NCBI GenBank assembly: GCA_973895155.1 | Contig: OZ316892.1 | Location: 21,081,619 to 21,145,618 of the forward strand | Length of the DNA stretch: 64,000 nucleotides | Direction of reading: 5' to 3' | Source: Marsupella aquatica | Lineage: Eukaryota > Plantae > Marchantiophyta | In this document: positions 33,861 to 57,402 of the stretch, piece after piece | Numbering within the stretch: the first letter of the stretch is position 1 | How the letters are laid out: every line of letters begins with the position of its first letter | Notes under the pieces: generated by a model | Told to the model about the DNA's origin: nothing | Databases searched by the model: none | Seen by the model: only the letters and a program-made list of their open reading frames with translations | Translations under genes and position numbers: made by a program

Positions 33861-35227
33861 GTAGTTACCTCGAGATGATCTCGAGGTAAAGTGACTACAA
33901 AAACAAACCAAAAAACCCAAGTATAGAAGTTTATCCCACAAAATTGTGTGATAGAGAAAATAAGAAACTCTTCTACCTCGAGACGATCTCGAGGTAGAAG
34001 AGGGACCAAAAACTCCAATATGTAAAAATTCAGAAGTATTTAGCTCGAGACGATCTTGAGGTAAAATATGAAATCTCACTGAATAGCGAATTCAGATTCT
34101 ATACCTCCGACTCTCTACAAACTCAATTATAAGAAGGACAACCGAATGCACCATTAGCTAGAAGGCAAAAGTTAATAATTTTGAGGATCAAACTTATGAC
34201 TCGAGATGATCTCGAGCCAAAAAGGACATTGTATTTGACAAAGATACTATTATGAATAATAAGCCACCCAAAATAAGAACATATAAATGGCTCTAGATGA
34301 TCTAGAGGAATGATTTGGTGCAATTAAGAAAGTAGGCTCCCAGTTTACTTCCAAACACTGAGAAATAGCTTCTAAAAGGCCATCAAATAGAGGGAAAAGG
34401 CTTCCAAATGGATTTTGACTGACACTAGTATAAGCTGAAAAGGTTTGGTTTTCTAAAAGATAGGAGCTCAATTATTTTAGACCTCCTTCAGGGCTTAAAA
34501 TGAGAATTTCTCGAAATATCCTAAACACAAACGTAGAGTCCACAACCCTTGAAAAGAACAACAGAAAGAGATCAGAGCAGAAATCTAGAGTCAAAGAGAG
34601 GGAGAGGGAGAGGGAGAGAGAGCAGAGAGAGGCAGAGGGAGAAACGAGCGAGCAATGAAACAAAATGAGAAGAATGACCCGCTGGAGACCAAAGAGAAGC
34701 AATATATAAAACCCTGACAGACAAAAAGGCCAATAAGACGGCTTGGTTGAACTTGTGTCACGGCTAAACTCGCGGCAGGGCAGAAGTACGGATAACAATA
34801 ATGACAACACGTGTGACCGTAATAATGACTGTACGCACCTAGCAGGTTGCGCGGCAGTCTGCCTGAGCCTGCACAAGCCCTGGCACGCTTGGCACGACCA
34901 AGGCCGACCCCCGAGGGGCTTATAGTGGCATCAGGGGTTTTGAATTCCCCATTTTCACATTCGCCTCCTCGCCTCCTCGCCTCCTCGCCTCCTCGCCTCC
35001 TCGCGTCCCTTGCCTCCTTGCCTCTAGATTGTTTTGCGCTCTTGCCTCGAGATCCTTGTATTAGCCTCGAGATTGCAGAGGGTCAAGATTAGGTTTTTTC
35101 CTCGAGATTTTATAGGGTCAAGATTTTGTGTTTAGGCTCGAGCTTCGATAGGGTCGAGATTTTCTATTTAGGCTCGAGATTTGTTTTTAAGTTCTCAGCC
35201 CATAGTACGTTCCTCTCTTCACCAGCC

Positions 35228-38200
35228 ATGTCGACTGTTGTAGATTTCTCCAAGGAGGACTTCGCTGAGTACAACCTTGCAACCGTTGGCGAAGAGCTTC
35301 AGACCCATCTAGACTCAGCACATCAGATCCATCGCACCATTAAACGTAATTCATCATCTTTGTTCTGTTTAGGTTTAACTCGAGATCGTCTCGAGCTTCA
35401 ATTGGTCGACTTGTTTCTGGATTCCTTGGATGCAGTTGAGGCTCGAGATCATCTCGAGCCTATTGATGTTTTTTGCAATACTTTGCTTCAAAAGTTGTGA
35501 TCTATCAATTGATTTTGCATTTGATGTAAGTGGCATGAGGCTCGAGATCGTCTCGAGCCAATATGCAATTCCTGCATGTGACCTAGTGAGATTTCTTCAA
35601 GTTGGAAACCCTTATCCTTCAAAAGTGAAACATCATATCCAAAATATCTAAAATTTCCTTCCTCCAGGGACTTCTGTACCCTCCAACTCGTTCTGATCAT
35701 TGACATCCGAACGGGTTTGTGGTATCAGAAGTCAATGGAGAAAGTGGATTTTAATCATTGATTGAATATGATGTTCATTGTTGAATATGATATTCGGATC
35801 ACTCGTTTGACATGTTAGGCTCGAGATCGTCTTGAGCCAAATATATCCCTCACCATCTTCCATTATGGTCATTCGTATCCCTTGGCCAATTTCTTCCAGT
35901 TGGAAGGATTCCATGTCGTCTACTTCAATTACTAATATCCTTTTCATGGTGATCCAAGCTTGCCTTTTGGACCACTTTCTTAGTCATCCAACTCGTTTGT
36001 GAAGATGACAAACCACTAAGTTAGAGGGTTTTGAATGTGGTCGAATAGGTGACATTGGATCATTCTTGAAAATGTTGTTCGTTAAATTTGACTGGTTCAT
36101 GATATGCAATGGAATAAAACCTCAACTGATATATATGAGGATCGAGATCATCTCGAGCCCTTGTCTTTTTCTTTTAAACAGATGGTGGCTCGAGATCATC
36201 TCAAGCCTATTGTGTTTCCTAACTATTGTGTTATCTTTTTAGATTTCTTGGGTTTAAAATCTCTTTTTAAATTCCACGGATGAAATGGCATTGGAACATG
36301 TCAGACTATTAAACTTAAAAGGAAGATCGAGATCATCTCGAGCCACCTATTTGTTTCTTGGTTTTGTAGTACATGTTTTTGACAATTGCTACATTTTGGC
36401 TGTACCAGGTGTGAAATTGGGATCGCCTAATTTGGTAGTCGAAGATGAACATGCAATTGAAGTTTCCTGCCCTGGACAGGGTTTATTTGGATTCTGTTGG
36501 GCCATTGAGCTTGCTGAAACTGAAGACATGGAAGGAACTATTATTTGTGTGAAGACGAGGTCTCCATCAGTCGATCCTCTAGTGTGCAGCCTTCTAGGGC
36601 TTATTGTTTCTATTGTGACGAGTAACGGTAAGGACATGGTTTTGACGGTGGAGAACCATGAGACAGGGAAGTGGGCTCTAATTAGACTTCACGCCAAAAA
36701 CTACTCTTGCAATCTTAACATTGAACGTGCAGCCAGGAAACAACTGAGCATGATATCAATGGGGTTCTTCCCCGAGGGTTTTACTACAAGTAATTTACTA
36801 GAAGATACTCCTATATCTGGAGCGGACATAATTTTTGGATTCCTTTATTGTCGAAAATATGGGTTTGATCGTGATGATGCATTCACGACTCCTTTCACGT
36901 GGAAGGTTTTGAGACTAATGTCGGAATCCAAATTGGGGGAGTTTGAATCCATATCCCCTGATTTTGTGTTTGGAGCCGGAGAATTTGACGAGGATGCTTG
37001 TAAAAAGTGGGTGTTGTCTCATCGGAGACAAACAGGTAAATTGAAATCTGTAGCTGCGGGAGACAAGACATCCGGTTTGGACAAAAAGGAAGCAAAGGTG
37101 TCTCAAAAGAGGAAGAGGGTTGAGAAACCCGAAAGCAAAGCGAAGAAGGCTCCACCTCAAAAAAAGTCCGCGCCGCCCAAGGTAGATCTCATTCCGGCAT
37201 CTTCCTCGGGTGTGAATGCACATACCGATGATGATGGCACTCCAGGAGATGCTCCGGGAGAAAAGAGCGTTAAGGAAGGAGCCGAACTTCTTAAGGAGAT
37301 TGAGGAGTATTACACATTTGGCATGAATGAAACTTTTGATATTCCTGTCACTAGTATAGATTTGCCGTCTGCAGTTTTGGTATATAGGATGTTCAATAAG
37401 ACCATGCCATGGAGGTCGCAAAATCCATGGTTAGAAACCCTGGAATGGTACCAGCTGTGGCGGATTTAATTTCGTATTCAAGAGAGAGTTTGTAGTTGCT
37501 CCATTATGAGAATACTGCTAAGGATCGAAAGGAGTTTGAGTGGGGTGTTAAGAATAAGAAGGTGCAGTTCCTTGCAATCAGTGGACAACACTCGGCAAAG
37601 GCAGCTGTTTGGATCATAGGTTGGGCTAAGAGCGATGCAAAGTTGAAGGAGGTCGCGAAGAGTCTGCAATATCGAAAGTCACAAATTCTTTCGGACAGAA
37701 CTCCAAGAACAATACTTGCTCAACACTCACAAAGGGCAAATGCTATTAATAAGACCATGGAGTATGAGTCTTGTTTTCTTGATACTATGGTCCATGCCCA
37801 TTGATAGTTTGACGAGTGTGGCCGTCCGGAGAGACCCGTGATTGGGTCCAATAGACTAACGGATCATCAAAAGTTCCAGGTAAATTCAAACTCAAATCCA
37901 CTTCTAGCTCAAGATTGTCTCGAGCCTCGAGGTCAAGTTTCTGTATTTGATTTATCTTCATGTATTCTCCCATAAATTTTACCATAGTTCTTTAATTCTA
38001 CCTCGAGATCGTCTCGAGCCTCAGATTTTCTTTGTACTGTTTGGATCAGGATTTTATGGCCCTTGCCAAAATAATGACTGGAAAATCCGATCTAAGGAAT
38101 ATTTTTTGGTTGCTATTTTCGGATGAGAACCTCTTCCGAACTTGGAGACAAATGTGCATCAATTGGGTCAAGGGACTTCTTCCAGATGGTCTAGGGGAGT

Positions 38201-39767
38201 TAGGTTAAAAAAAAAACGGGAAATCCCGGACAATAAAAATGATTACGCCGGCATTGTTTAGATGCTTTGAAGGAGATCTAAGTAGTGACGACATTCTGAA
38301 AGTTTTTACTGTCGTTCAACAACAGAAGATTTTATTGAAGAAAGACCCAGCCAACAAATCTGATGTTCAATCAATGAGTGATATGGCTCATACTTTCAAA
38401 GTCATGACCAAGCTGAGGGCAAAAATTGTGGAGTACTTTGTTTTGAAGTATCCGGATCGGTTTGCCAATTCACTCACTTGGTTTGAGCTAACTCAATTTT
38501 TGCCTGCATTTATGGATCGTGGTGAGTTGCCGAAACTTAGACAACTTGCTGGAGAGGTTTGGATTTCCAACCTCCTAAAAAGAAATAGGCCAAAAGACCC
38601 ATTTCCGCAAAGTCTCATTGTTAGGCTTGAGCAGATATATTGCAAGGTATTTGGCGGGTTGCCTTCAATGGAGGATACTCCTTATCGCACATTTTTTAGC
38701 GATAATTTGATGAGGACAATGAAGACTGAGATTGTTGACTCGGTGCAAAGGATGTGCCCACTCTCCATTGTCGATTTTGGTCGTCTTCGACAACGGCAGT
38801 GGACAGATGCCGAATTTTTTGTCTTGCTGGAGTATTGTTTGCAGATGGCAAACTCGACGGAGCTCTTAGTAATCATTTTTGTCCATCAAGGCCCATTGAT
38901 AGGCCAGATTCAGAGTGCCTTTGAAAATATTCATCGTGAGAAGAAAGTCCACACGAAGCTGGAGTACAGGAGCTACTACCGTGATCAGCTGCCCAAGGAG
39001 GAGGGAGATTTTCTCATTGGAGCCCAAGACTCAATCATCTTTGGGGGAATTTGTTGTGAAGAGGAACCAGACTGGTCCCAAATTTTCTTTGATGACTTTT
39101 ATGCGTTCTGGAACTACAGTGAGAAGTGGGACAAAGACTTCACAGTCTTGCCTTTGAAGGCCCCTACTGGGAACAACAAAGACCAATCAAAGGGGAAAGA
39201 GAAGCTCGATGAATCCACTGTTGATGTCAAAGTTTTGGAGAAGATGACCCCATCTTATGAGATGGTCGGTCGGCGTGGTGGCTTTGTAAATCCAAGAGCA
39301 AAGCCTTTGCGAATGACAAAGCGTCTTGTTGATTATTTCTCGTGCCCAGGTCATACAGTATTGGATTTCTTCTCTGGAGGACAGACATTGAAAGCTTGTG
39401 TCATTCTTGGTCGGGATTGTTTTGTGTATTCGGACACAGCTCAAGAGATGGAATTCACAGAAGCCTTTGCTCAGCTCCTTCATGACAACAAGCAGGTTTT
39501 ATATGTGCCACCCAAGGAGCCGTTATCATCTGAGGAAATTACTGCCGGTCCCCTCGTTGTAATAGAAGAGGCGGCCTTAGACATAGCTCCGGTAGAAGCC
39601 AGTGTTTATGAGGAAGTATTTGCGGAGAATTTAGAGCATCGCAAAACGGAGGGCCCGAAAATCACAAGCTACATGGAAGAGAAGGGTGAAATACTGCCTG
39701 AATTTGGAAATGATGCTCGAGATGATCTTGATGTTCCAGGTGTGCCTTCATCGGGTGACCTTGGGGA
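35228..39767 (+). pseudogene. Cargo gene, 5' part: ParB-like domain plus N4/N6 DNA methyltransferase-like domain (multi-exon, decayed)
   Basis: DIPVTSID..RMFNK/DHAMEVAKSM..FLAISGQHSAKAA (ParB-like); NPRAKPLRMTKRLVDYFSCPGHTVLDFFSGGQTLKACVILGRDCF (beta-class MTase motifs X/I). Intron 37880-38049 is in phase. One frameshift at ~37399 and stops at 37493, 37802, 37805 and ~38206. The 5' exons are tentative. Confidence 0.65.
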
Positions 39768-40112
39768 TGTTAGGATTTACTCTTAGGTCTAGAGTTACGA
39801 ATGTACCGTAGTTAAAACTAACCTTAGTCGCAGACTTGGTTAGGTTAGTCATGCTGTGCACACTCTATAACCAAGCGGTGTTTGCTTGGAGAGGTGGAAC
39901 TCAGGCTCATTGTTACGGAGCCAGTTGAGAGATAGGGAGAGCTTGTGCTGTGGATGCTTGGTATGGCCGGTCGGCCTAGAGTGTAGTAAAGCTCTTGTGT
40001 GTTCCCGTGGACGTAGCCTCATGTGGAGGTGAACCACGTATCTCTCTGTGTCGACTATTGTGCGTTGGATGGTTCATGGGCTTGCCATTACGATCGTCGT
40101 CTATGCTCAACA
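39768..40112 (+). repeat. 5' LTR (345 bp)
   Basis: tgttaggatttactc...ctatgctcaaca; about 9 substitutions and 1 indel versus the 3' LTR by manual comparison. Confidence 0.97.
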
Positions 40113-40114
40113 AT

Positions 40115-40126
40115 TGGTATCAGAGC
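40115..40126 (+). other. Primer-binding site (tRNA-iMet)
   Basis: TGGTATCAGAGC 2 nt after the 5' LTR. Confidence 0.95.
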
Positions 40127-41044
40127 ATGTCTGGGAGGTGACGTGTATTTGTGATGGTTTTTTCCAGTGTTGAGTGTCGGTGGATCACCCGGAGTTTTGT
40201 CGCATGGAACTTGGAGTTTATGGGCTCAACGGATAGATCGGGGCAAGAGCTTTCTAACGGTGTGAAGAAATCGTTGAACGGAGCTCGTGGTGCAGACACA
40301 ACTACATTTTGACTCAACTTAACGTTGCCTCACAACAGGCTAATCTCGACGTATGAAACTCTAAACGGAAACACGGAATCCCCAAGGTAAAATTGGCAAC
40401 GTTCTGGACGTCTATATTGACGTGGTTTCTTACGTCGTCTCACACAATGCACATTGCCACACCGCCAACGTGGTTCTTTGTGTGCACGACGTCCTATGCA
40501 TCGTTAGAGTACTGGGCTAATGTAGATTTCCATGTCCATTGAACGTCGCACGAAGTGACGTTAATACAAACAAAATGTCGTGATTGACGACGTTGACTCC
40601 CTCGTATAAGACAACGTCAATGTTTGTAACGATGTCTGGGACACCGTTTCGTTTGATGTAATGTGAATTCGTTCATTGGTTTACGTGGTGTGATAAGACG
40701 TTGTTATCATATATCGATGTCATGAACGACATTGTGTGAAAGTGGAAGACTACGTCTGGGTCATACCTTGTGAGATGCTTGGTAACTTTATGAATGAACG
40801 ACACCCCGTATATTATGTCGGACCCTGCCATACAACCTTATTGGAGGTTATAAACACACTTAAGCTAGGGTTACAATGGGGTGAGTATTATTTGGGTAGG
40901 CAATTGGGGTTTAGGGATACACATTCAATATGCATATGGTATAGACGTTGTAATCCGCGAAAAGTGTGGTATTAGATAATATTGTTATGGGCCAAATATG
41001 TACAAAATGGAGGATGAAGTTGGGCAAGTAAAATAGGCTATACC

Positions 41045-43209
41045 CTAGTCACGCTCAGTCCGCCTGGTATCACGTCCAGACCTGCGTGTAGAAGTGGGTT
41101 GTACGCCTCTCGTGCGCAACTCGTACCTGGAGTCATCCTCCTCTAAGCTAGTGGTACTGGGGGACAACGTATCTGCCTGTGTTGCAGCCCTATGAGTAGT
41201 CACTGGCCTACTCCCCTTACTGTGTGGAGGTCGCCTAGTGTCATCCCTCCTCCTCCTCTCCCTCTCCCTCCCCCTCCGTCTATCTGACCTATCTCTCCCT
41301 ATCTCCCTCTCTCTCCCTCCCTTGGCTCTCTCTCTCCCTCCGGCCTTGGCCACTAGTACGCCCCCCATGAGTCTCTGCCTCCTCCTGCCCGCAATCTACG
41401 TGAGCCTCCTCCTGCAAACCCTCCTCGGGCGGTACCCTGGCTGGCAAGTGATCCTCAGGGATGGCCCGTGCAACCAAGCCCTCCGGAGGAGTCCAATCCT
41501 CCACCTGCATGATAGCATTCTGGTCAGTTAATGTCACAGAGTAGGCCTAAAGTCAACTACAACCTAGCAATCACTTTAGCTCTTACCCGGTGATCCTCCG
41601 GGACTGAGGCCAACTTGGCCCATAGCGCTGCCGGGCCATACCGTTTCGAGTACAGCCGCTCCTCCTCCGACGGCTTGGCATCGACACCAAACTTGCGTTT
41701 CTGCGAGAAAGCAAAAGAACGTCGTTCCTAAGCACGTATTCAACCCTCTCAGCATCGGTGCTAACGTCGTTCCATGCGTTGCATATCTAGTTAACGTCGC
41801 TCTAACGACGTTTTCACTAAAGCGGTACATGTAACGTCTCAAGGATGACGTTCTTCCTAAGGTACGTCTCAGATGAAGTTACAAATCAAAGTTAACGTTG
41901 TTATGGACGACGTTATGAATGAATCAGGCGACGTAATTTCAAAATCTCGACGTTACACTATGGTTTACACCAGAGCAGCGAAATGAAAACGTGGAAGTTG
42001 GGTCCGAGACTTACGTAGGTTGCAAGGAACCCTCGCCATCCTCCTTGCCCCCAGAAATTGGTTACTAGAAGGTGTCCGCTATTCTTTCGAGCTGCAGTGG
42101 CTTTGTCACCCATGTGCACTCGTTTTCCTACTGGGGTGTCTGGGGGTGCTTCAAGTTCAGACACGATCAAGTTGAAGTCCGACTTGGCCATCCCTTCAGG
42201 CTTACGGTACTGCCCTGTCTTCTCGCATTTCATTGCTCGGACCTTGCTTCTCCACCTGAATCTTCTGTCAGCAAGGAAACTCACAATCTTCTGCCTGATG
42301 TGTCGAAAATCAATCTCTCTGCCATTCTTGAATCCGGCCTGTATGTCATTGAGGAGTACTTGAAACTTCTTTGTATTGTGCACGAGGTCCTTCCAAGTCG
42401 TCCACCCAGGGCAGTATTTCGTACAGCAGACCTGCACTCGATTCGTTAGCGCCTTCTCATCAAGCACCTCTGGCTTCGCATCAAAAGCAGCCAGGCTGAT
42501 GACCGGCAGTTGTTCTTTGCTGGCAGGAGTAGCAACGCTTCGGTGAGGAGAAGCTCGCCGACGACCTCCTCCGATTGAATGTGAATGTCGATGTGACCTT
42601 CGACCTCTCCTATCTCTGTCCACCCTCGAATCTCATTCAGCCCTTTTTCTCTTGTGTGTGCTGCGGCTGTCTCTTTCTCTGCGCTCCTTTCCCTTCCCCT
42701 TTTTTTTGTCTCCTCTCAATGCTACTATTGCTACTCAAAGAACGGGAACGACGTCGCCTTCTGTGTGTCCGCAACTCTGTACTTGAATCATCAGGCTCAT
42801 ATCTCTGAATCCTCACTTGGCTCTTGATGGGAGTAACACAGGGTGGTTGTGAATCCGGCTCCATCCCAGAGAATGAGGGATAGTCCCAGACTGAGTCCAT
42901 CAAGGGCGGGAAGGAAGCAAGAGGATCAAGTGATGCCCCCGGAAGGTCGCGCAAGAACTCTGGTGCTTGAATGTCGGGCTCAACGTCGGATGCTGGAGCG
43001 TTCTCTTCTATGTTCTGAAGGTATTCCAAAAATCGTGACTCCTTCGTCCCAGTTCCTCCCATGAATTGCCAACTCTGATTGAAAGCATCAATCAGTGAAT
43101 GTGCTGACCGCAAAGCTGTTCGAACCTTCTCCACCTCCTCTGGGTCTTCCATGGAAACTTTCACAGCATCAAAGTTGATACTGAGGGGCAGATAAGCTGG
43201 ACGTGACAT
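41045..43209 (-). pseudogene. TnpA/Ptta-like accessory ORF of the CACTA element (one frameshift at ~42630-42710; downstream exons ~41700-41587 and 41519-41045)
   Basis: WTTWKDL..FLADRRFRWRSK..KATAARKNSGHLLVTNFWGQGGW resembles plant Ptta/En-Spm ORF2. GT-AG sites at 42014, 41701, 41586 and 41520. Charged low-complexity tail. Confidence 0.5.
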
Positions 43210-43727
43210 TGAGGCGAGACTTGGAGCAAATGTAGATGACCTTCACAAAGATTAGAGCTTCACTAGAGCTTCACTAGAGCCACAAACAGAACAGAACACT
43301 AGATGTGGGGTGAGGTGTGTGCGGAATGGTCGAATGACTCACATTCGACACTATGCCCCGGTATTTTCCGAATAGAATGCGGCAGAGTTCGCAACAATGT
43401 GTTTCCGCCATTCTCTGTCTATTTACGTCATTTTTCACGACGATGCCCTAATTGATCGATTAGTAATACGTTGTGCTAGACGACGTTTTCATTTAAACGT
43501 TGTTCTGTACACCGTTAAAAGGTAGGGTTTACTGTAACGTCGTGTGGGGTACGGTACATGACGTAGGGTTTAAGAAATATGTCGTGTATTGTGTTCTCGG
43601 CGACGTAAAGTGAAAGTACTTTGTTTTACTTGACGTAAATATTGTGGTACTATAGTGGTCCCGACGTTCCATTTCCAAGGCTGAGTTTGCAAGTTTGCGT
43701 GTATATGTGTGTGTACTATTGCAGGCC

Positions 43728-45211
43728 ATGGCCTCGTGCTCATCGGAGTGGTCATCTGATGATCGCTATGATGGAGGTGCACATCACCAAGACAGGTACC
43801 GCTCTCATGATAGGGGGAGGGAGAGGAGGAGGGAGCACTCACCTGCGAGGTCGAGATACCACTCAGCCGAGAGGAGGAGGGACTTATCATCTGATAGGAG
43901 CAGGCACCATTCGTCTGAGAGGAGTTGGGATCAGTCTTCAGATAGGGAGTACCGATCTAGGGATCATCGACATCGGGAGCGACGAAGGCATAGGAGGTCC
44001 CATCGACAGTCCCACCGCCACCGCCGGTCCAGGTCTCCCTCTGATGACCACACACCCCGACACCGATCACCCATGCCGGAGGATGAGGATAGGTTTGGAG
44101 AGGCCATGGCTGCCCTTCAGGGGATTGGCCCAGTCCGAAAGATGCCCTGCCCATGTAGTAGATGCAAGGGCGTCGTCTCCCACGAGAGGACCACTGTCCT
44201 TAGCCATTTAGGCCTCCACGGCCGTTACGTACCCCCGACACATCAGGTAATTCATAAACCTTTATTGACACTATTCAATTCATTAAGTCCTTATTTTTGA
44301 ATATAACATGTTTGGGTTTCTTGAGTTTCTTGAGTGTTTAGTTGGAATGGTTTTTTCCCTGATTTCTGAAGTTCTCTTGTTCACATGTGAAACAGATTTT
44401 GTGTGTGGTCTCTCCGCCCTTGGACCACATGAGATAGGTTGCACGTCGCGCGCTCACAGCACTAGTTCCCCCATCAGCACTCGATGCCACGTTAAGGGCA
44501 ATAGACCGTGTTTTTGATAGGAGGAGGAGGGTCATTCGGAGTCACCCTATTGAGAGGGGAGTAGAGGTCACCACTAGACCTCGGTCCATTACGTCTCGTA
44601 CCCCTAGGACGGTGCCGCCACACTGTCCTTTTCTTGATGCCTCTTTTTCCCGAGCACCAAGAGAGTTAAGAGGGAGAGCCTTGGACATCATAAAGGACTC
44701 ATTCCCAATCCAGTTTGGCCTCCCTATGGTCCTGCTTGTTCGGGAGCCTATTGTAGTTTGGGATAGGCCATGGGTCCTCCTCCCATCCACATTGGGAGAC
44801 GACGTAGGTCTTGGATTATTTGCACTCGTGGATATTGTGGTGCCGGAAGGTTGTGCACCTGAGGACCTGCCCGAGTTGATTCCATTTTATGGGCCAAAGT
44901 ATTCGGCCCATAGATGGCGTATCTTGTCTCGCCAATGCCCAACCTTTGGTCGGTATGGCATGTCACTAAAGTTGGACCCTAGGTATACTCAGATGGATGG
45001 TTACCCCCCTCGTACTGGAAACTTGGCGGGTTACATCAATAGCACAGTGGGGTGTCGGCGTTTGGGGTTCCGCCCCAACGCTGAGTGGCATGAGTACCAT
45101 GACCAGAGTCACCCTCGTTTGCCCTTGGGATGCAGTCACTACATCCTGACACATGCCACCCGCACCATTCGAGCAGGGGATGAGATATTTGTAGACTATG
45201 ATTGGCATTGA
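43728..45211 (+). CDS. SET-domain protein; exons 43728-44246 (RS-rich plus transposase-associated Cys/His domain) and 44438-45211
   Basis: STLGDDVGLGLFALVDI, FYG, GNLAGYINST, PNAEW, HATRTIRAGDEIFVDYDWH. A phase-0 splice gives an uninterrupted frame. Confidence 0.75.
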
Positions 45212-48200
45212 AGATTATATATGTTATTGATCACTTATTCATTACTCAGAGTGAGACTTATATTGGATTCTTTGACCTTCAACCTCATGCACTATTGGGA
45301 ACACATTGTCTAATTTGGGGATGACCTTATCTAATATTGATGTCTTGCATAGGATGGTCCAAATATAACACCTACACCTCATCCATCGATGATGACGGAG
45401 TCAGCCCGTTCGTTCCACATGCGAGCCACATTATCTTTTTCTGACGACGAAGATGTTGAGAGTGATCATGTGCATGAGGACGAGGATGTGGACGAGGATG
45501 TGAATGAGTACCATGATGCACATGATGACGATTTTGATGAAGATGTAGAGGATGATATGGATGCACCTATTCTTGAAGAGGATGCTTTTGCGCACCTTGT
45601 GGACATCCACTTTGGACCTCATGTACCTGAGGGTGACCCTCCTGTCATGGAACTAGACGAAGATGATTGGGACCAATTGGAAACTGAATCCAGGACTCCG
45701 CTATTCCAGGGTTCCCCGACCTCACGGTACATTTCTCTGAGGTGCTATTATAGTTTTTCTACTGTAATGTTGCTTAAGGGTGTGCATAAACCCTAAGTCC
45801 CCAATTGGACCATCCTCAATGGCATGCCTTAAACTAATTAAAAAGCTGGTTTCTTTGTGGTTTTCAATGCAAATGCAGGTTGGGAGCCACACTCTTGATG
45901 TTGAATTTACAGGGGGTTTTCAATGGATCAGATGTCCATACAGATGCACTCTTTGCGTTGTTCCACAACAAACTCTTGCCTCAACCTAACAACCTTCCAG
46001 GAAGTGTGCGGGAGACTAAGAAGTTGTTATCATCTATCGGACTGGCGTTAGAGACTATACATATGTGCCCTCATGGGTGCATCTTGTATAGAGGACCGTA
46101 CTTGGACCTCACCCATTGCCCAATTGAGCGATGTGGCCTTCCACGGTATCGTCCTGATACCATTGGAGACAAGATTGCTGAGAAGGTAATGACATCCTCT
46201 CTGTACCACATCTGTATTTTAGTAATTTTTGACGTACTTTATGGCGTTTTGTGTCCCTTAACGTTGCCCTCGTGAGTAGTACGTCTTTCAACTAGAAGTA
46301 AATAACCCTAACGTCTCCCTTGTGATTTTTACGTCTTTCCATACGACGTTTTTTAGTCCAACGTCGATTTTTGCAACGTAAAAGTTTAGAGAACGTAGAT
46401 CTGCTCAACATGAAACTATAACGTCGTTCTGGACAACGTTCACTTTTAGGATACGTAGTTATGTTCAATACAGAAGTAATACGTCGTATTGAACATCGTA
46501 AAGATTTTTGGAACGTAGTTATCGTCAACGTATTTGTGATGTTAACGACGAAATGCCGCCTCATGGTTGTTGTACATTCAGGTACTGAGGTATTTTCCAA
46601 TCACACCCCAATTGCAGCATCTATACCGGCGAAGACACCTATCCTCCCTACAGACTTGGCATGCCGAGACCAAATCCCTAGCAGGGATAATGCGGTATCA
46701 CCAAGATAGTCCAGCATGGAAGCACATTGATGCCACATGGCCAGATTTTGCTGCAGAGCCACGGAACGTTCGGTTGGGGTTGTCCATAGATGGGGTAAAC
46801 CCATACAAGCAGCGACGGAAACCAAAGTCCATTTGGCCAGTTCTTTTGATAAATCAGAACATCCCTCCATGGTTGGCGATGAAAAAAGGTCATGTTCTCC
46901 TCCTAGCTATCATTCCCGGTCCCGAGGCTTGCAAGAATCCAGATGTTTGCTTGGCCCCAGCTTATGAAGAGCTACATGACTTGTGGGAAATTGGGGCTCC
47001 AACAACAGATGTCACCCGTGCACCGGACAATGGGAGGACATTCAACATGAGAGTCATGATCACCCATTGCACCACTGATGGGCCCGGTAATTCAAAAACC
47101 TTACAAAATGTGATTATATTGTGCTAAATGACTTTATGTCTTCATTTGGCTTCTTTTATTGTGGGAATATGATGGGGTTTCTTTGGCAGGCATGGGCACA
47201 ATATCAGGCTTGAAGGTGGCTGGGTACTCAGGTTGCCCTTCATGTGGCCCTGAGTTGCATGGGAGGTACTCAGTACTATTGCACAAAACCACATATGAGG
47301 GCAGCAGGATGAGATTGTCAATGGATGACCCCATGCGATGTAACACAAGACATTGGGCACAGACTGAGTTAAGACCATGTCCTAATGCGCCTTCAGCAGA
47401 AGCTCAAATTCAAATGGCAGAGATGGTGGAGGCTAAGCTGCTGAAACCCAAAGATTGTGGAGTAAACCGACGCTCAGCATTGTGGGACTTGCCTTATTGG
47501 AGGGTAGGTACAATACACCTATCAAATGTTGTGTATAGATTTTTTCATCAACTCTCATAATGCTAGAGTTTTTCACTTGATTACCATGTTGTGCAAGCAG
47601 ATGCTAAAGATCCGGTGGCTACTGGACTCCATGCACATTGAAGTGAATGTCGCAAAGAATTTGGTGAAGCACATGTATGGTGAGAATGATACTCGTGGAG
47701 TTCGTGTGGATGCAAAGAATGTAGGAGTTGTGAAGAGCTGTTGGATATCAGGTACATGATAAAACATCGATCAACCCTTAATTTGTAAGAAGTTGCCCGG
47801 ATTTGCCTGAAACCCCAAACCCTAACAAGTTGATTCTCTTTAATTATTGGACAGCACGTACTGGGGTGACACCACCAGCCCCTTGGATTTTGCCTCGAGA
47901 CATTCTAAAGGATGTGAATGGGATGATTTGTGAGATGAAGTTCCCGAGCCATTACGGAGCTGGATTCCATGGGTGCACAACGAGGAATGAGTACATCCCC
48001 CCGATAGGGTTGAAGTCCCACGATTATCACAAGTTGATACAGCATGTGCTCCCTGCAGTGTTGCGTTGTTGCGATGATTCTAGAGAGCGCCACCTACTCC
48101 GACTCACAGTGTACAAGTTGTGCTCCATTTTCAGGTTGGAAATATCTTACTCGTGGATTTTGTGGTGTTATGGGACCATAAATTTATGGTGTCTCAAACG

Positions 48201-49597
48201 ACATTCTAGAGAGGATACGTAGTCTCTTAATACTTTACGTCATCTATAACTAGGTAATGTAAAAATACGACTCCACATACGACGTATTCAAGGTCGTATA
48301 AGTCACCCCTCTTCAGGAACATCCTGCAAAGCGACGTTTGTAGGAATCTTAGTAGAGGGAATGTTAGTAGGCATTGAATTGGTAACCATCTTAGCCCACT
48401 TTCAGATTGGGCGGTGATATTTATTCCTGTCATGTTTTTGAGTGCCTCATAGGTGGGTATGTGCCAAGGAGATCAAGGAGTCAGAGATTCCTTTGATGAG
48501 GGAGAGGACGGCGCAAGTGATGTGCAATTTGGAGCGAGTGTTCCCCCCAGCACAGTTTGACATGCAAATGCATTTGCTATGTCACCTGGTGGATGAAGTT
48601 GCCATTGCAGGCCCAGTCCATGCCCGATGGATGTATTGGGTTGAGCGATATATGAAGGTGCTCAAGGGTTGGGTGCGTCAACCCGCTCGACCTGAGGGAA
48701 GTATGGCAACAGGGTTCATTATGTCAGAGTGTCTTTTCTATTCCGGGGGGGTGATAGGGAGTTTGGATAGCAAAGCTCCCACAACTTGGGAAGAGGCACA
48801 AGATGATGACAATGGTGGGCTGCGATTGATGGGTGCGGCCAAGAAGCGATCATTGGATGATGACATCTTTCGTCGACAGATCCATAATTATGTGTTGGGG
48901 AATCGACCGGAGATGTCTGATTGGAGGGAGATGTATAGGTATGGTACTCTAAAATTTTAATCGATTGTGAATTGGATTTGAGAAGGCTGCAAATCTCTAA
49001 CAATCTTGTGACAACGTATTTGGCAGTGCATGGTTGGAGCTTCAAGTGGGAGTTGCGCAAGCAGGTCGTGGCATTGCATCATTTCGTGTCTGGGCTTTGG
49101 AGCGCATGGAGAGGCTCTTGGCTGTGCATGGGTCTACATCCATTCCCATTGATGTACAAAACATCATTAGAGGGCCAGGGATGCGGGCCACAACTCATAC
49201 ACACATGTATGAGTCAGGGCATCACTTTCGGACTTGGAGGACAGACCATATGAAGAAGAGTACTTGTAACTCTGGAATCTTCATGATGACTGATGTAGAT
49301 GATGTAGAGGTTCCTTATTGTGGGACAGTTGTGGACATTTTAGATGTTCATTTTGGGTCATTTGTCACCACTGTACTAGAGGTGAGGTGGCACAAGTCGA
49401 TCATGTCACCCCCAGCGAGAGCTACGATGGTTGCGGATGAGTGTGGTTTTTATCGTGTGGACACAACCCGAGTTGCACCCACAGGGACTGAGTTTAGTGA
49501 CACCATAGTTTTTCCTAGCCAGGTGGATCAGTGCATTATGGTTCCGATGCAGACCATGAGAGGATGGTCCATTGTCATACTAATTTTCCCTCGGTGA
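43728..49597 (+). CDS. TnpD-type CACTA transposase; exons 43728-44246, 45353-45726, 45879-46185, 46582-47086, 47190-47503, 47601-47751, 47855-48134, 48453-48938, 49027-49597
   Basis: CPCSRCK..HL..HG; IHMCPHGCILY..CP..C; LRYFPI..DSPAWKHID..EPRNVRLGLSIDGVNP..SIWPV; TDGPG; DSMHIEVNV; GLKSHDYH; FPPAQFDMQMHLLCHL..GPVHARWMYWVERYM..RPEGSMA; YCGTVVDI..DECGF. All junctions are GT-AG and in phase, and no stops were seen. Confidence 0.88.
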
Positions 49598-50278
49598 AGG
49601 AAGGGCTTCATGGCATCAGTCCTTGCAGACGATGCGGACTGACACTATCCTTCACACCCTCCATTTATATGTATTGGCTATGCCCACCTTCCACATATAT
49701 ATTGACATATGTTTCGACGTTTGAGATCTGGCAAACTGGAGGGAGAGTTGTGCAAAGTTTCTTCTTTCCTCACTTTATAGCTAAGAACACATTAAAAAGC
49801 ATTAAACCTCGGCCTTCGAACAACCTTCAATGGGTCCTAGCACGTAAACCCTTATCACGTAGGCCAATTGACACTTCGAACTTATTAACGTCAACCTCAA
49901 CGTCATTAGACAATCAAAGGTCCCTTATACCCATAATGAAGACGTTAATCTATAGTTACGTCGTAGATACGTTGTACAAACGATGTATACATAGTACGTC
50001 CTTGGTTTACCTTGTAGTAGACGACGTAGATTGTGTTACCGTGTCTTAAACGACGTAAATGTTTATTTAACCATTCTTCTGATGACGTTCAAAGTTTCAA
50101 TCGACGTTACTCACAAAACACATTACAAATATAAATTGCCTGGGAGGGACTTTTTATTCATGCGCTCAGAAACATACAACGTGCACATAAGGCATGAGTC
50201 TGACTCCAGTCTAAACTGATTCCAATCCTAGGCAAATGATGCTCCTCCGTCTCCAGCTGACCTTGGCACTAGTGTAGC

Positions 50279-50839
50279 TTAAGGGGTCCCTTCACCAGAC
50301 CAGTAGTACTCCTCATCTGCCTTCCTCTTTTTGTACGAATCACGCCTATTGCTGGCGTTCCATTTCTTGCGGACCACTGCTTCACCAACCTTCAGCCTTT
50401 CAGCCTCAATCTCAGCTGCACAGCTTTCCTTGTAGTCATACATCACAATATCAAGTTCAGTCGGTGACAACTGACATTTAGCCAACTTTGGTGGACAAGC
50501 CTCACCATCATCATCCTTGGGCGTATTGTCCAGCATCAAATCGTCCCCTGGATGCAGCAAAAACTCTTCTGGGTCCAACTCCTTATTGCCCAGAATGGAG
50601 TACTGTACCCAACAAATCGAGATGAAATGCACGGACTCTGCAAAGTGCTCGATCAATCCAAGATAGTCACTGAAGTGCTCTGTGACTTGTTTCCAGGTAT
50701 TGGCAAGCAAGTATTCCGTCTTTGAGTTACAAAACTTGTCTATCACACCTCCACGACAAAAAAAGCCACGAACAGTCTTGTCTTCTTCACCTAGCGGAAG
50801 AAAACAACAGTGGACATCCTTGAATATCTTACGTACCAT
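50279..50839 (-). CDS. Small BRCT-domain-like protein carried by the CACTA element
   Basis: IFKDVHCCF..RGGVI..KTEYLL..HFISICWVQYSILGNKELDPEEFLL fits the BRCT consensus (F, GG, THLI-like, W..S); basic C-terminal tail. Confidence 0.6.
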   Translation of the reverse strand: MVRKIFKDVHCCFLPLGEEDKTVRGFFCRGGVIDKFCNSKTEYLLANTWKQVTEHFSDYLGLIEHFAESVHFISICWVQYSILGNKELDPEEFLLHPGDDLMLDNTPKDDDGEACPPKLAKCQLSPTELDIVMYDYKESCAAEIEAERLKVGEAVVRKKWNASNRRDSYKKRKADEEYYWSGEGTP

Positions 50840-52547
50840 AGCTAAAGACTTTCAATCTCACTCTGCAAATTCTGTGCACTATCATACCCGTAGGACATCT
50901 GAAATCACGAATGACCTGTGCAGTGAGGTCCCAGTAGCCTTGCCCCAAAAACTCCCGCAAAAAACCTTACGCATGCCAATTGGATTCCATTAACGTCGTT
51001 TCCCACATTGGTCATATACGTCTAACCTCGCCCAACATCCATTATACGTTGTCATAGCATAGTATCCGTTATAGCCACGTCTGAAACGACGTACATCTAT
51101 ACGTCGACCCAACCCTATTTTGCTACACCGTTCGGGACGACGTCTACATGTTTGCCTCGTTATAAAAGACGTAAATAGCCCTATTGGGAGATACGTTAAA
51201 TTAAAGACCCTCTAGACGACGTAAAATGGGAAGGAAAGTCAAATGGGTAAACCCATTTTGGGTTACGACGTAGAGGGAGATGTACTGGGGAGTAACGTCG
51301 TGTCACATGACGCGAAAGGAAGTCACGACGTAGTGAAATGTAGTTGTGAGAGAGATCTAAGTTTTTGTCATTTTGGATTTTGTGAAGAAAGTTGGCAACA
51401 TTCGTGTTCGACGGTTTTTTGGAGAAGGGACCAGAGTTTGTTTTCTTGACGGTTTGAGCTCTACGGCAAAGGAGGCATCGCATGCTGTAGCTCTGCTTAT
51501 AGATCGGGATGAGCTGTTTGTTTTGGTAGCTGATTTGTTACCAAGTGTGTACCGTGTGCGACGGGACGAGCAAAAGAAGCATTCTGATTTTCTGACCGGC
51601 TATGGAGTCCTCTTTTGCCTGATCGGGGTTTCTTGTCGTGGAAATCGACTCGGAGGGAGAAGCGTCAAGTATTTTGACTCAACGGAGAGATTGAGGCAAG
51701 ACGATTGTTTTGAGTCCGGGATTGGCTCTTTGATGCCAAGAGGAAGGCTAAGCAAAATCAATTACCTTGTTGGACTTGGTGACGGCACCAAGTGCAATTC
51801 ATCAACATTCGTTGTTGACAAGGTACCATTTTTTCTCTTTGAAAAACTGATTCAAAATTGGCTATGGCAATTGAGAGAAATCTGTCATCTTTACCAATTT
51901 TTTTCTCTCTTGTTCTTTCCTCGTTTTGGGTGCTTCTTATACCGATCTTCACCGCCTCGAAGTCTAGTTTCCAAATCTGAAATCAGATCTTGATTTCGTC
52001 AAAACCCGAGTGAGATATCTTGCGTTTGGTGTCGAGGGGTACATTCTGCCGTGTGTATTTTCTGCGCGCGTGACCAGATTTCGACAACGAAGGGTGGTAG
52101 GGGGTTTTGGGGGTTCGAGGACACGTGTCAGCCCCTCGATTGTTCTTCCAAAATTCCCATAGGGCCTGTACAAGGGTCATAGAATATTCCAAAAAACCAG
52201 AGAGCTATTTTTTGACCGTCCAACAAAGATTTCATCCGCCGAACGGTAATTTTTTTGGTTCTTTTTTGGCGAGGTCGTAGCCATTGAAGTTGGCAACGCG
52301 ATGCACCGATCACATCACAATTCCGATGACGGGTTGTACTTCATATTTTGGTTATTCCTTGAGGTGGTCAAAACGGGGGAGTTTCCCAAGGTTTTACCCA
52401 CCTCGATCAAAATTTGAATAACTTTTCCGTCAAATTTTGATTTTGATTTTCAGTATTGGACTCCTAGCTTTGTGGGCTACGCGGCGGTGTTGAATTTTGA
52501 GTTTTTAGAGAAGTTGTGAAAAACGACATTTTTTGTGATTTTCTCAT

Positions 52548-55500
52548 ATGAGTGATTCGGAGGAGTTTTTTGAAGACGTGGAACTTGAAGCACGAGGATC
52601 ACCACGGCGGTTTGAGGGACAGAGAGAGGAGCAAGAGGAAGAGCACGAGACACCGATACCATCACCGGTGCGGCGTGTGGTGGAGGAAGCAGTACTACTA
52701 CCGGAGCTCACGGTAGTGCCAAAGAAGAAGATGGGGACTTTCAAGCTTGGGGGACCCAAGTATGAAGTGACAAAGTATGATGGGCGCTCTGACTACTTGC
52801 TATGGGAGAAGCAGGTGAAGGGAGTGCTCTATACGTCAGGGATGGGCCAACTGCTAAGCCCTCATGAAGACGATGTTGATGAGAAACAATGGGACCGCAT
52901 GTAGGAGCAAGGAGTGTGGTGTGTTACACTCTATCTCATGCCTCCCATCATCAAGCAGTTGGGTGCACATAAGGCGGGACATAAGGATTGCATGTCCTTG
53001 TTTGCGGAATTGCAGAGCAAGTATCACCGCAAGGAGTTGTCAAACCGGCTATACACTTCCTACAAACTGATGAGTTTCAGGATGAAGGAATCCGGTACGA
53101 AGTTGCAAGACCATGTGGATGCTTTCAACGACATGGTCGTTGACTTGGAAAACCTTGGGGAGACTTTGAATGATGAGACGAAGGCTCTGCAGCTTCTTAG
53201 TTCATTGCCTCCATCTTACCAGTCCCTATCACGAGTGTTGTTGCATCGTGATAGGGATATCATTTCATACAATGACGTGGTAAGTTCTCTGCTTAGTGAT
53301 GATCTTCAGCAGAAGATGCACATCACGTCACAGCCTTCATCATTTGGTGTTGCCCTCAATGTTAACCGTGGGAGGAGTATGCAGCGACCAACTGGGGACT
53401 GTAGAACCTAGTTTAGATCTAAATCCAGATCTAAGTCCAGGGGTAAATCCCCTCAGAGGAGGCAGGTGACATGTTGGAAGTGCAACCAAGTTGGACACTT
53501 CAAGCGAGACTGTAAGGGAAAGGCAGCGGAAACTTCATCGGCAAATGTGGCTAGGGCTGATGGAGAAGCTGATTTGCTCAATGATGAGTATGTTTTATGA
53601 AGTCGGGGGTATGCCCTGTGCACGTCATCCAGGAGAGCAGATGATGTATGGATTCTTGATTGTGCTTACTCTTTTTATATTTGTTACATTCGTGAGTTTT
53701 TCAGTTCTTACTCTATTTCAAACGGTTCAGTTCTGATGGGAAATGATCACTCCTATCAAATTGAGGGTATTGGGTCTGTGAAGATTCAAATATTTGATGG
53801 CGTTGTGCGCACAGTGTCCGGAGTCAGGTATGTACCTGGCATGCATAAGAATCTGATTTCACTCGGTGTGTTGGATTCAAATGGTCATCAATGAAGCGTT
53901 ATTGATGGTGAACTTCAAGTCAGATCGGGAGAGACAATGATTTTGAAGGGGAGCAGACAAAAAAAATTGTATGTGTTACAGAGAAATATTGTATGTGGAG
54001 AGGCCAATGTAACCAAGTCTCACGAGGAGATGACTCAACTGTGGCATTCACGGCTAGGCCACATGAGTGAGAAGGGTTTGGCTATCTTACGGAAGAATGG
54101 ACTCATTTCTAATTTGCAATCTTGTAAATTAGAGTTATGTGAGCATTGCATTCTTGGAAAGCAGCTTTTGGTGTTGGAACTCATCGTTCCAAAGCGGTTC
54201 TTGAGTACATACATAGTGACGTGTGGGGTCCATCCTCGACTCCCTCACACTCTGGAAAGTTGTACTATGTATCATTTATTGACGATTACTCAAGATTTGT
54301 GTGGATTTATTTCATGACGCTGATGTCTTGTCCATTTTTAAGAAGTGGAAGGCCCAGGTGGAGAATCAGACTGGAAACATGGTCAAGTGTTTGGATACAA
54401 GGGTGAAGAGTCCGAGGTCAGACAATGACGGGGAGTACACTTCAATGGAATTTGAAGAGTACTGTTTAGAACAGGGGATAACTCACCATCTCACCACAGT
54501 TTATACTCTGCAGCATAATGGTGTCGTTGAGAGGCTCAATCGGACACTGTTGGAGCGGTCACGGAGTATGTTGAGCCAATCAGGTTTACCACAAGAATTT
54601 TGGGCAGAAGCTGTCAATACCGTAGCTTATTTGGTAAATCTTTCTCCTTCTAGTGCTATCAATTTCAAAACGCCGTTTGAGATGCACTATAAGCGGCAAG
54701 CAGACTATCATGGCTTGGTAGTTTTTGGAAGTGATGCATATGCTCTCACACTGAAGCATAATAGGACCAAGTTGGATCCTACCTCCAAGAAATGTGTTTT
54801 TCTTGGGTACCAGAGTGGTGTGAAAGCCTATAGGCTATGGGATCCTATTGCCTGTAAGCTCGTTGTCAGTAGAGATGTTTCCTTCAATGAATCTAGATTA
54901 TTGAAGGAGGGGGAGAATACTCAGGTCTCCCATACTGACAAAGAAAAATCTCCTATCCCGGATCTCGTTGAGGGGGAGATTGGTTATGAGGTGCATGACT
55001 GGAGAGAAGAAGTTGCTCCAATTATGGAGCTGGTTCTTGTGCCAGAGGAACCAGAGGAGTTTGTTGATGCTGGTGAGCAGCAAGTGGATGCTGGTGAGCT
55101 TCAAATTGTACCAGCACACGCAGATCAACCAGAGTCATCGGCTATAAGAGCATCTGGTCGCACTGTACGCACTCCATGAAGGTATGGACAGTGGGTTGAT
55201 TCATCTCAGTTGCAAGAGGAGGATCGATTTTGTTACTGACGATGAGGGTGATGCGTTGATTTTGGAAGAAGGTGAACCTTCTTCATTTCATGAAGCAAGT
55301 GCTTCAAAGGAGAAGCAGGAGTGGACTGCAGCAATGCAAACGGAGATGCAGTCACTGAAGGACAACAAAACTTGGGAGCTTGTCAAGCTGCCTAAGGGAC
55401 AGCAAGTGGTGGACAGCAAGTGGGTATACAAGCTGAAGGATCAGTCCATAGGAGGTGGATCGAAGGTCTACAAGGCTAGGTTGGTAGCCAAGGGATTCAC

Positions 55501-56860
55501 ACAGGAAAAAGGTGTGGATTACAATGAGGTCTTCTCACCAGTTGCTAAGTACTCAACAATACGGCTATTGTGTGTGCTTGTTGTTATGTTTGGTCTGCTA
55601 CTAGATCAGATGGATGTTGTCACAGCTTTCCTCTATGGCACCTTGGAAGAGGTGATCTTCATGAGACAGCCGCTAGGTTTTGTGAAGAAAGGGCAAGAGG
55701 ATTTGGTTTGCAGATTGCTGAGATCCTTGTACGGGTTGAAGCAGTCACCAAGACAGTGGAATAAGCGGTTTGATGATTGGATTCATGCACAAGGCTTTCA
55801 CAGGAGTGTGTTTGACCCATGTGTGTATCTTAAACCGGTGAAGAATGCTGTCTTAGGGTTCATTGTTTTAGTACTTTATGTGGATGACATGCTAATTGCA
55901 GCCAAGGATAGGTCTGAGATTGTTAAGCTCAAGGCACTGCTTAGTGCAGAGTTTAAGATGAAGGACTTAGGGCCAGCTAAGAGGATTTTGGGTATGGAGA
56001 TCACTAGGGACTTGGAGGCTGGCAAGCTATGGTTGACGCAGAGCAGTTATGCGAGGAAGGTAATTGCAAGATTCAACATGGGGAATAGCAATCCAGTAAG
56101 TACCCCGTTGGCTCCACACTTCAAGTTATCATCAGCGTTCTGTCCTACGGATGACACAGAGAAGGGGTTGATGTCAAAGGTTCCGTATGACAAGGCAGTG
56201 GGGAATCTCATGTATTTGATGACTTGCACTAGACCTGATCTTGCCATGGCTATGGGCAAGGTGAGCAAGTACATGTCGAATCCAGGGAAGGTACACTGGG
56301 AAGCAGTGAAGTGGATTATTCGGTATTTGAAGGGTACCGTGGATCATGGTCTATTGTTTGATGCACATGCTGATAATGCTAGATCATTGATGGGCTATGT
56401 AGATGCTGACTATGCACAGGATCTAGATCGGAGGAGGTCAACAACAGGTTATGTGTTCACACTTGGAGGTGGATGCATAAGTTGGAGGTCTACTTTGCAG
56501 AAGTGTATTGCTCAGTCTACTACAGAAGCGGAGTATGTTGCAGCAGCGGAAGCAGCAAAGAAAGCGACTTGGTTGGATAGACTTATCAATGAGATGGGAT
56601 TACCATAGGGGAATGTGAAGCTCCATTGTGATAGTCAGAGTGCACTCCACCTTGCTGTGAACCAGGTGATGGACAGCAGAGTGAAGCACATCGACGTTAG
56701 GTACCATTTTATCAGGCAGGCTGTGTCTAATAATATGTTTGAGCTAGTCAAGATTGACGGTAAACTCAACCCGGCTGACGCTTTTACCAAAGTGATTCCT
56801 TTAGAGAGTTTTTCTAGACACCGTGATGCGTTGCAGGTTTTGCAATTGCCTCACAAGTAG
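52548..56860 (+). pseudogene. Copia gag-pol, disrupted
   Basis: KYDGRSDYLLW; LLSSLPPSY; zinc knuckle CWKCNQVGHFKRDC; WILD protease; LWHSRLGH..CEHC; IHSDVWG, FIDDYSR, RSDNDGEY; YKARLVAKGF, QMDVVTAFL, LYVDDML; YVDADYA, SSTEAEY-like QSTTEAEY, CDSQSA, KHIDVRYHFIR. Several stops and frameshifts. Confidence 0.95.
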
Positions 56861-57040
56861 GGTTACTTAACATTTGTGTAGATACTGAGATATGCTCTTG
56901 CTCATTCCTTGTATAGGCTACGACTTAGTTTTGGTCTACTCTCGTATAAAGAGGGAAAAATTGGTTTGGTTTTTCTTTCCAGAACTTCCCGCTGAGTAGT
57001 CATATTGATAGCAGCCTTTACCCTCACCTAGACCAGAGTC

Positions 57041-57050
57041 AAGGGGGAGA
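57041..57050 (+). other. Polypurine tract
   Basis: AAGGGGGAGA immediately before the 3' LTR. Confidence 0.9.
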
Positions 57051-57051
57051 T

Positions 57052-57397: not shown

Positions 57398-57402
57398 GGG
57401 GA

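Follow-up and report, generated by a model that had tools for sequence, protein, structure and literature searches.

The DNA considered here, a stretch of 64,000 nucleotides (nt) from the liverwort Marsupella aquatica (contig OZ316892.1, positions 21,081,619 to 21,145,618; hereafter the window), carries a DNA transposon of the EnSpm type at 40297-51348 (11,052 bp), whose transposase gene, TnpD, holds an open reading frame (ORF) for a SET domain inside its first intron (Table 1). Nine TnpD exons joined at GT-AG sites (8/8 introns) give an uninterrupted protein of 1168 amino acids (aa) with CxxC and HxxxH motifs, and the donor of exon 8 can be placed at 48933 or 48939 with the frame kept in either case. 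The frame is open only with SET skipped; since exon 1 ends and exon 2 starts in phase 0, TnpD requires removal of the 1106-nt intron 44247-45352. A first-pass annotation made from the letters alone had described these parts, and most of its description stands: exon 1 is open and arginine/serine (RS)-rich, with a CPCSRC..H..HG motif and a phase-0 end at a GT donor, the phase-0 acceptor at 45352 leads from 45353 into the open nine-exon model, and the SET ORF is open over 257 codons. Exon 1 is predicted to be common to TnpD and to the SET form.

The SET ORF passes the Pfam profile PF00856 (24.1 bits, cut-off 22.4). Among 1667 candidates, 21 are related to it at 40-63% identity; the closest named ones come from two liverworts, Calypogeia fissa (49-59% identity) and Riccia sorocarpa. 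Profile searches extended the family to 154 cluster representatives (50% identity clusters) at E values up to 0.001. A search of the PDB with the SET sequence gave no significant match. An AlphaFold2 model built with 22 sequences reached a mean predicted local distance difference test (pLDDT) score of 82; SET domains topped the Foldseek and VIA-align lists obtained with it, and the Atlas score to SET clusters was 0.96. Structural matches include ctPRC2 (Z 12.1, root-mean-square deviation 2.7, 136 residues aligned), SET8 (Z 12.0, 2.2, 122), Set1 (Z 12.0, 2.7, 124) and PRDM3/5 (Z 10.8). In SET enzymes the GxG motif and an Asn bind S-adenosylmethionine (SAM), and two Tyr line the lysine channel. 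The motifs first read here as GxG, YINS and EIFVDY are all present (the first as GLG) and conserved: G124 is found in 111/121 rows, G126 in 118/123, Y173 in 111/122, N201 in 123/134, E249 in 102/104 and Y254 in 98/99, counted over those of 168 aligned rows that cover each site (91-99% kept), which are related and not independent. The number of methyls that fit depends on the residue two positions ahead of the last Tyr; 96/99 rows have V, A, I, C, T or S there, as in multi-methylating enzymes. Profile, fold and the GxG, Asn and two Tyr residues all place the ORF among SET-domain proteins. Canonical histone enzymes of the SUV39, SET2 and MLL types carry an NHS/NHC histidine and a post-SET cysteine cluster; with Ser in place of His and a short C-terminus, the ORF falls outside these subfamilies. 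Judged by sequence and fold, it belongs to a family of its own and cannot be placed in a subfamily or linked to a substrate.

At a single locus, the match in phase between the SET exon and exon 1 is about a 1-in-3 coincidence, as phase 0 is shared by 8 of the 26 YAG sites that the intron contains; the layout goes beyond chance because it recurs in other lineages. One scan of metagenome contigs yielded 19 loci, of which L019 encodes an unrelated bacterial-type SET. Ten of the 19 reach the CxCxxC exon, and behind it a phase-0 GT is present in 10/10. In 8/10 the SET frame begins at a phase-0 YAG 111-144 nt further on; in L006 the candidate YAG lies at 249 nt, and L008 has the same site with a frameshift behind it. 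SET is followed by TnpD exons in 12/19 loci (ten by tblastn, L005 and L007 by exon 2 sequence), and the other six plant-type contigs finish 225 nt past the SET stop or sooner. The full layout of exon 1 donor, SET acceptor and exon 2 acceptor is present on one contig in L001, L005, L007, L009 and L012, which represent two lineages beyond that of the window; most of the remaining contigs are not long enough to show it. The exon 2 acceptor is again in phase 0, at 136-147 nt from the SET stop in the L003-type family and at 189 nt in L001, and in the L003-type family it reads TTGCATAG, as in the window (141 nt), or TGCATAG. L015, L017 and L018 are 5'-deleted copies. The SET domains of these lineages are 33-47% identical to that of the window. 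No exon 1 junction was present among the 15 joints listed of 51 in four runs whose contig type is unrecorded, which counts neither way. A SET domain built into the transposase gene is a real, conserved feature of this bryophyte-type EnSpm lineage, and, as far as reading frames can tell, it probably shares the first exon of TnpD.

Further support for a shared first exon comes from unbroken frames that hold both the zinc motif and the whole SET domain, namely P0031 (423 aa, on a Logan contig of 2141 nt) and P0167 (424 aa, on an ENA contig of 1528 nt), which are 55% identical to each other with the linker and junction included; the Riccia sorocarpa gene models P0033 and P0040 have the same build. 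A profile made from six exon-1 zinc motifs of the window and the loci, searched against 186 proteins, matched P0031 (E 2e-10), P0167 (E 1e-9) and the Riccia models P0057, P0033, P0082 and P0040 (E 5e-10 to 1e-3), the best of 930 shuffled controls reaching E 0.35. A single SET query retrieved none of the longer, fused forms among 4246 candidates; profile searches did find some.

The first-pass annotation had suggested comparing nonsynonymous with synonymous substitution (dN/dS) across copies as a check on neutrality. Estimated by the Nei-Gojobori method on the SET core, dN/dS is 0.21-0.30 between L002 and ten L003-type copies (dS 0.42-0.51); the SET ORF is conserved between these subfamilies and so does not evolve neutrally there. 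The window gives 0.26 against L001 at a dS of 1.6, near saturation, and the comparisons of the window or L001 with the L002 and L003 types (0.42-0.68) were left out as near saturation. Diverged run contigs also align across the SET and TnpD exons and fall off at the SET stop (loose end 45211). Selection between families combined with decay within them would be as expected if the gene matters to active elements only. A tree was built by a quick method with a midpoint root from 74 rows (72 of the 168 aligned rows plus two loci, 96 short rows having been dropped). All rows with known transposon context fall in one group of 53 rows (Shimodaira-Hasegawa-like approximate likelihood ratio test 91; no outgroup), outside which lie Ginkgo, Adiantum and one Calypogeia protein. 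The SET phylogeny proposed at the outset to trace the source of the domain has thus grouped the transposon-context rows, and, being without an outgroup, gives no origin. Distant members of the family are P0097 (Ginkgo Gb_21150, from a gymnosperm), P0152 (from the fern Adiantum) and the Calypogeia proteins P0061 and P0075; P0061 has Cys/His repeats before SET in place of the CxCxxC motif. With regard to a viral origin, of 18 pattern matches in viral contigs 0 were confirmed; viral SETs match at E 5e-7 and 25% identity, and the fold scores of viral and cellular SETs are similar.

The SET acceptor had originally been placed at 44437, and this placement probably has to be corrected. At 44435 the window has T, and C stands there in every contig crossing the position in 4/4 runs. 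The family thus reads CAG at 44435-44437, a Gln codon that continues the frame of a CAG acceptor further upstream, at 44393-44395, which is also in phase 0. Close relatives begin with M-R-x-x-A-R-R, and the Gln stretch can be aligned to these starts; in one diverged copy the Gln codon is replaced by GAG, and P0009 has Gln at the same 11-codon distance with Phe at the place of the Met. Composition also favors the upstream site: T accounts for 43% of the 30 nt preceding 44395, compared with 33-50% before the eight TnpD acceptors and 23% before 44437, and the 42 nt between the two sites have an exon-like guanine-cytosine (GC) content of 0.50, versus 0.31 in the intron. As a weak hint, both changes listed within 44396-44428 leave the SET protein sequence unaltered (2/2). 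The acceptor of the family is likely 44395 and not 44437. With 44395, the SET form of this copy would probably stop at 186 aa. Because of the stop at 44435-44437, this copy likely makes the transposase form only, unless that TAG itself acts as a fallback acceptor, which would give a SET form of 430 aa. The T at 44435 may occur in this copy or strain alone; two runs have contigs ending at 44434, leaving room for other letters at 44435. The earlier idea that transposase and SET share an N-terminus is thereby well supported, though indirectly, for the family, where phase-0 sites recur, fused ORFs exist and purifying selection is seen, and it probably fails in its acceptor and, given the likely premature stop, in its application to this copy.

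The interpretation that we favor, with a probability of roughly 0.6, is that the SET exon in TnpD intron 1 allows one transcript to yield either a transposase or a zinc-motif/SET protein, the latter a predicted lysine methyltransferase that would mark histones in the element's own chromatin against silencing. Under this proposal, one promoter and ATG and one donor (44247) would serve two acceptors; the near one (44395) would give an RS-rich/zinc-motif/SET protein of about 444 aa in the family, and the far one (45352) the 1168-aa TnpD, so that the shared RS-rich/zinc exon would lend both products the same nuclear address and perhaps the same partners. Its components merit different degrees of confidence. 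That donor 44247 chooses between 44395 and 45352 is quite probable, and so is the SET form being an active SAM-dependent lysine methyltransferase. We lean toward a mark that favors the activity of the element over one that damps it, and a histone is only slightly the better guess for the substrate.

Several observations weigh against this proposal. The ten loci amount to about three lineages (L001; L002 with the L003-type; L006) and are not independent events. Among L003-type copies dN/dS ranges from 0.23 to 1.24 (nine pairs), 4/12 cores contain a stop and most copies decay. The contigs of P0031 and P0167 could be RNA or intron-less DNA, with or without TnpD behind. The Riccia models are predictions, and P0082, P0083, P0112 and P0168 stitch SET pieces into TnpD, so that such models are unreliable; the stitched models confirm the exon order but show that these models are predictions only. 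In the window, in L001 and L002 and in the L003-type family, translation could start separately, at a Met no more than 12 codons from the acceptor. The His of the NHS motif is replaced by Ser in 120/133 rows, and the window protein ends three residues past Y254 without a post-SET cysteine cluster. Finally, since enzymes for H3K27, H4K20 and H3K4 are tied (Z 12.1, 12.0 and 12.0), no substrate can be deduced from structure.

Some of these points suit other explanations. The same splicing could produce a SET form that methylates a non-histone protein (TnpD, a TnpA-like partner or a host silencing factor) or regulates without catalysis. Many SET enzymes do methylate non-histone proteins, and this one has lost the NHS His, possesses neither a reader nor a pre- or post-SET domain, has no sequence match to solved SETs and finds only tied structural matches at 14-25% identity. 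However, its nearest structural neighbors are histone enzymes, the conserved catalytic Tyr, Asn and GxG speak against a dead enzyme, and other transposon SETs are, likewise putatively, interpreted as histone enzymes in published accounts; we consider this alternative unlikely. If instead the intron harbored SET as a small independent gene, with its own ATG (44429 here) and an in-phase acceptor that is incidental, the Met close behind the acceptor in four lineages would be accounted for, P0001, P0003, P0005 and P0006 are indeed called from the matching Met, and the SET cargo of other transposons, in the accounts just mentioned, is a separate gene. One diverged copy with an apparent 11-nt loss in the 44396-44428 stretch fits a non-coding stretch there, or a dead copy. 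Such a nested gene is nonetheless hard to reconcile with the distance of merely 111-149 nt between exon 1 and the SET frame in the majority of loci, with the 11-codon spacing from the upstream Gln that P0009 retains despite its Phe, with the (weakly indicative) silent changes upstream of the Met and with the unbroken zinc-motif/SET frames, and we regard it as quite improbable.

The least credible explanation is that SET is a captured host fragment carried as passive intron cargo. CACTA elements often capture gene pieces, many copies have stops or deletions, and distant relatives occur in the Ginkgo, Adiantum and Calypogeia annotations, all of which speak for such a capture. Yet the position and phase of the exon are fixed across lineages whose proteins are 33-45% identical, dN/dS between subfamilies is low, and the diverged run contigs align over the ORF and leave it at its stop. 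Passive cargo is largely refuted by this conservation, and we give it a very small chance.

The favored interpretation, a splice choice between transposase and SET protein, has precedents for each of its ingredients. In maize Spm and in Arabidopsis EN/SPM3 and 7, alternative splicing yields both TnpA and TnpD (PMC13547354), in agreement with the first-pass annotation, and TnpA is an anti-silencing factor that works via host DNA demethylases (10.64898/2026.08.24.746577). Similar to En/Spm, the present element has a CACTA-type TnpD and probably two products per transcription unit, and in En/Spm the second product regulates the epigenetic state of the element. Here, in contrast, the alternative product is a predicted SET enzyme that would share its coding first exon with TnpD, a possible TnpA-like gene is separate and divergent, and splicing, shown for En/Spm, is deduced from frames and sites. 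In PAG2, an accessory gene of Plavaka elements of red algae, a PF01555 DNA methylase is fused to SET (PF00856) within a three-gene cassette, on an element of the EnSpm/CACTA superfamily for which chromatin modulation has been proposed (10.1101/2025.02.11.637652). That SET belongs to a separate gene in red algae, whereas the one described here lies inside the transposase gene of land plants without a methylase partner; PF01555, which marks PAG2, was found neither in the SET ORF nor in exon 1 nor in the 14 relatives scanned. SET genes are also carried by HarbingerS and oomycete MuDR elements (PMC12730594) and have been captured by Helitrons (10.1101/2025.02.11.637652). These too are DNA transposons carrying SET, but they belong to other superfamilies and hosts, and the accessible parts of these sources describe accessory genes, not exons of a transposase gene. 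Minimal SET enzymes (SET8, the PRC2/EZH2 core, the Set1/MLL core, PRDM PR domains and viral SETs) share the fold at identities of at most 25%. VANC of VANDAL elements is likewise a plant DNA transposon factor that acts on its own silencing; it differs in being a sequence-specific DNA binder of the MuDR superfamily without SET, and its function has been demonstrated. No land-plant EnSpm element with a SET exon sharing the first exon of TnpD was found in the literature as far as its accessible text goes, Repbase and supplements being outside the search, and the combination, within the same limits, was not found in print.

In liverworts and hornworts, many transposons lie under H3K27me3, and those of the moss Physcomitrium mostly under H3K9me2 (10.1101/2022.10.24.513474). 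The plant anti-silencing factors known from the sources available, VANC and TnpA, are DNA binders that reduce DNA methylation, and no working transposon-encoded histone writer was found demonstrated in the literature examined. If our proposal is true, a plant transposon would encode an enzyme that counters silencing by writing histone marks, and a splice choice would control it. The widest version of it, in which an old and widespread bryophyte EnSpm lineage uses one gene and a splice choice to jump or to mark, and a new minimal SET family methylates histones on cognate copies and opposes H3K27me3/H3K9me silencing, is tentative and rather doubtful. Because SET has been kept across the lineage, it would allow a direct test of which mark is written and whether the splice switch is coupled to transposition. 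The domain is small, confidently folded and easily expressed, and its family of 154 clusters is absent from solved structures. Additionally, the Riccia and Calypogeia annotations list members of this family as host 'SET domain' or unnamed proteins.

Regarding the element itself, its perfect 13-bp terminal inverted repeats (TIRs) begin with CACAA, such that its ends read CACAA..TTGTG. In 4/4 runs there are loose contig ends at 51349 whose letters equal the DNA immediately left of the left AGA; they come from other copies of the invaded Copia element, in which this site is empty. On plus-strand ORF pieces Pfam returned PF02992 and PF13960 (Table 1), and a weak match to PF13963 on exon 1 (E 8e-4), under the cut-off. 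The EnSpm/CACTA superfamily in the broad sense is recognized by 5'-CAC..GTG-3' termini with a 3-bp target-site duplication and, in the core of the transposase, by the motifs C(2)C and H(3-4)H (PMC12730594). All of these are found here: the TnpD-type domains in an open 1168-aa model, the perfect TIRs with AGA on both sides and an empty site, and CPSC in exon 5 with HLLCH in exon 8, both read directly from the sequence with the acidic catalytic residues unaligned. Strict CACTA elements end in CACTA..TAGTG (PMC4158355), and that terminal pentamer is not present at the ends of this element. It belongs to the broad EnSpm/CACTA superfamily only, and in that sense alone was the label "CACTA element" in the first-pass annotation correct. 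The relatives L007 and L009 have a CACTA start upstream (one end only). With ends that read CACAA, the element escaped a search for terminal pairs of the CACTA/CACTG kind, and standard CACTA finders would miss elements with such termini.

Table 1. Features of the SET-bearing EnSpm element and their positions in the window.
Feature	Position	Strand	Basis
Left target-site duplication copy, AGA	40294..40296	.	sequence
Left TIR, 13 bp, CACAA start (not CACTA)	40297..40309	+	sequence
Left subterminal region rich in ACGT words	40297..40800	.	15 in 504 nt vs 3 in 529-nt flank
Arg/Ser-rich ORF piece	41045..41395	-	ORF list; no Pfam match
Divergent gene head-to-head with TnpD, two frames here (41958-42632, 42637-43242)	41958..43242	-	ORFs
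Exon 1: ATG, RS-rich, CxCxxC..H..HG zinc motif (44148-44225), phase-0 end	43728..44246	+	ORF
Short intron to likely SET acceptor, 149 nt, GT..CAG, GC 0.31	44247..44395	+	sequence
Likely first 14 SET-exon codons; contains ATG 44429 and TAG 44435-44437	44396..44437	+	run contigs, GC
SET ORF, 257 codons plus stop, core about residues 100-254	44438..45211	+	Pfam, fold, alignment
141-nt spacer ending at TnpD exon 2 acceptor TTGCATAG	45212..45352	+	sequence
TnpD exon 2, acidic, phase-0 start	45353..45726	+	exon-joined model
TnpD exon 3	45879..46185	+	exon-joined model
TnpD exon 4	46582..47086	+	PF02992 E 3e-38
TnpD exon 5, remainder of PF02992, CxxC motif	47190..47503	+	Pfam, model
TnpD exon 6	47601..47751	+	exon-joined model
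TnpD exon 7	47855..48134	+	exon-joined model
TnpD exon 8, HxxxH motif	48453..48938	+	PF13960 E 2e-29
TnpD exon 9 up to stop codon	49027..49597	+	matches PF13952 region of L003
190-codon ORF inside element	50279..50851	-	no Pfam match
Right subterminal region rich in ACGT, including right TIR 51336-51348	50950..51348	.	13 in 399 nt vs 0 in 502-nt flank
Right target-site duplication copy, AGA	51349..51351	.	sequence

The element holds further genes. The minus-strand gene that diverges from TnpD, for which no Pfam family matched, has a counterpart, equally placed and oriented, in L005, L007 and L009 (weak tblastn matches, E 2e-4 to 3e-3); it may be a TnpA-like partner. The Arg/Ser-rich piece at 41045-41395 is probably a later exon of this gene. 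The ORF at 50279-50851 looks BRCT-like by eye only, and a single-sequence model of it was unsuccessful (pLDDT 35). In TnpD, one diverged contig of run X1 omits 106 nt that correspond nearly exactly to intron 6 (window 47746-47853), which may mean that a related family has lost this intron, or that the record is spliced. Over 41000-51500, the window differs from all contigs mostly as T for C or A for G (in the rows listed), a pattern that the decay of a methylated copy would leave, or that a different strain would show.

The invaded retrotransposon is of the Copia type and spans 39768-57397, with long terminal repeats (LTRs) at 39768-40112 and 57052-57397 that are 97-98% alike; the SET element sits about 180 nt behind its primer site, and its gag-pol is split over several frames, with stops. 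A larger element seems to surround the Copia (30147-39786 and 57397-59288), marked by 13 copies of a CTCGAG..CTCGAG palindromic word. Its ORFs encode a DUF7869 protein (30147-31847, minus strand, E 8e-39), a PF01555 N6/N4 DNA methylase (38209-39786, plus strand, E 1.6e-6) that extends into the left LTR, and, beyond the right LTR, an NIF phosphatase (58193-59269, plus strand, E 9e-17). A second transposon with DNA-methylase cargo, enclosing the Copia, is possible; PF01555 also occurs in the red-algal PAG2. Elsewhere in the window, GC-rich frames of a non-LTR-type reverse transcriptase were recognized by eye at 1700-4760, together with what we take, by eye, to be ordinary host genes, of a kind that points to a land plant, for a Kelch-repeat protein (5047-6237), a gluconolactonase-like protein (12924-14750), a cyclophilin-like protein (19820-20473) and a chloroplast FKBP (24675-26032).

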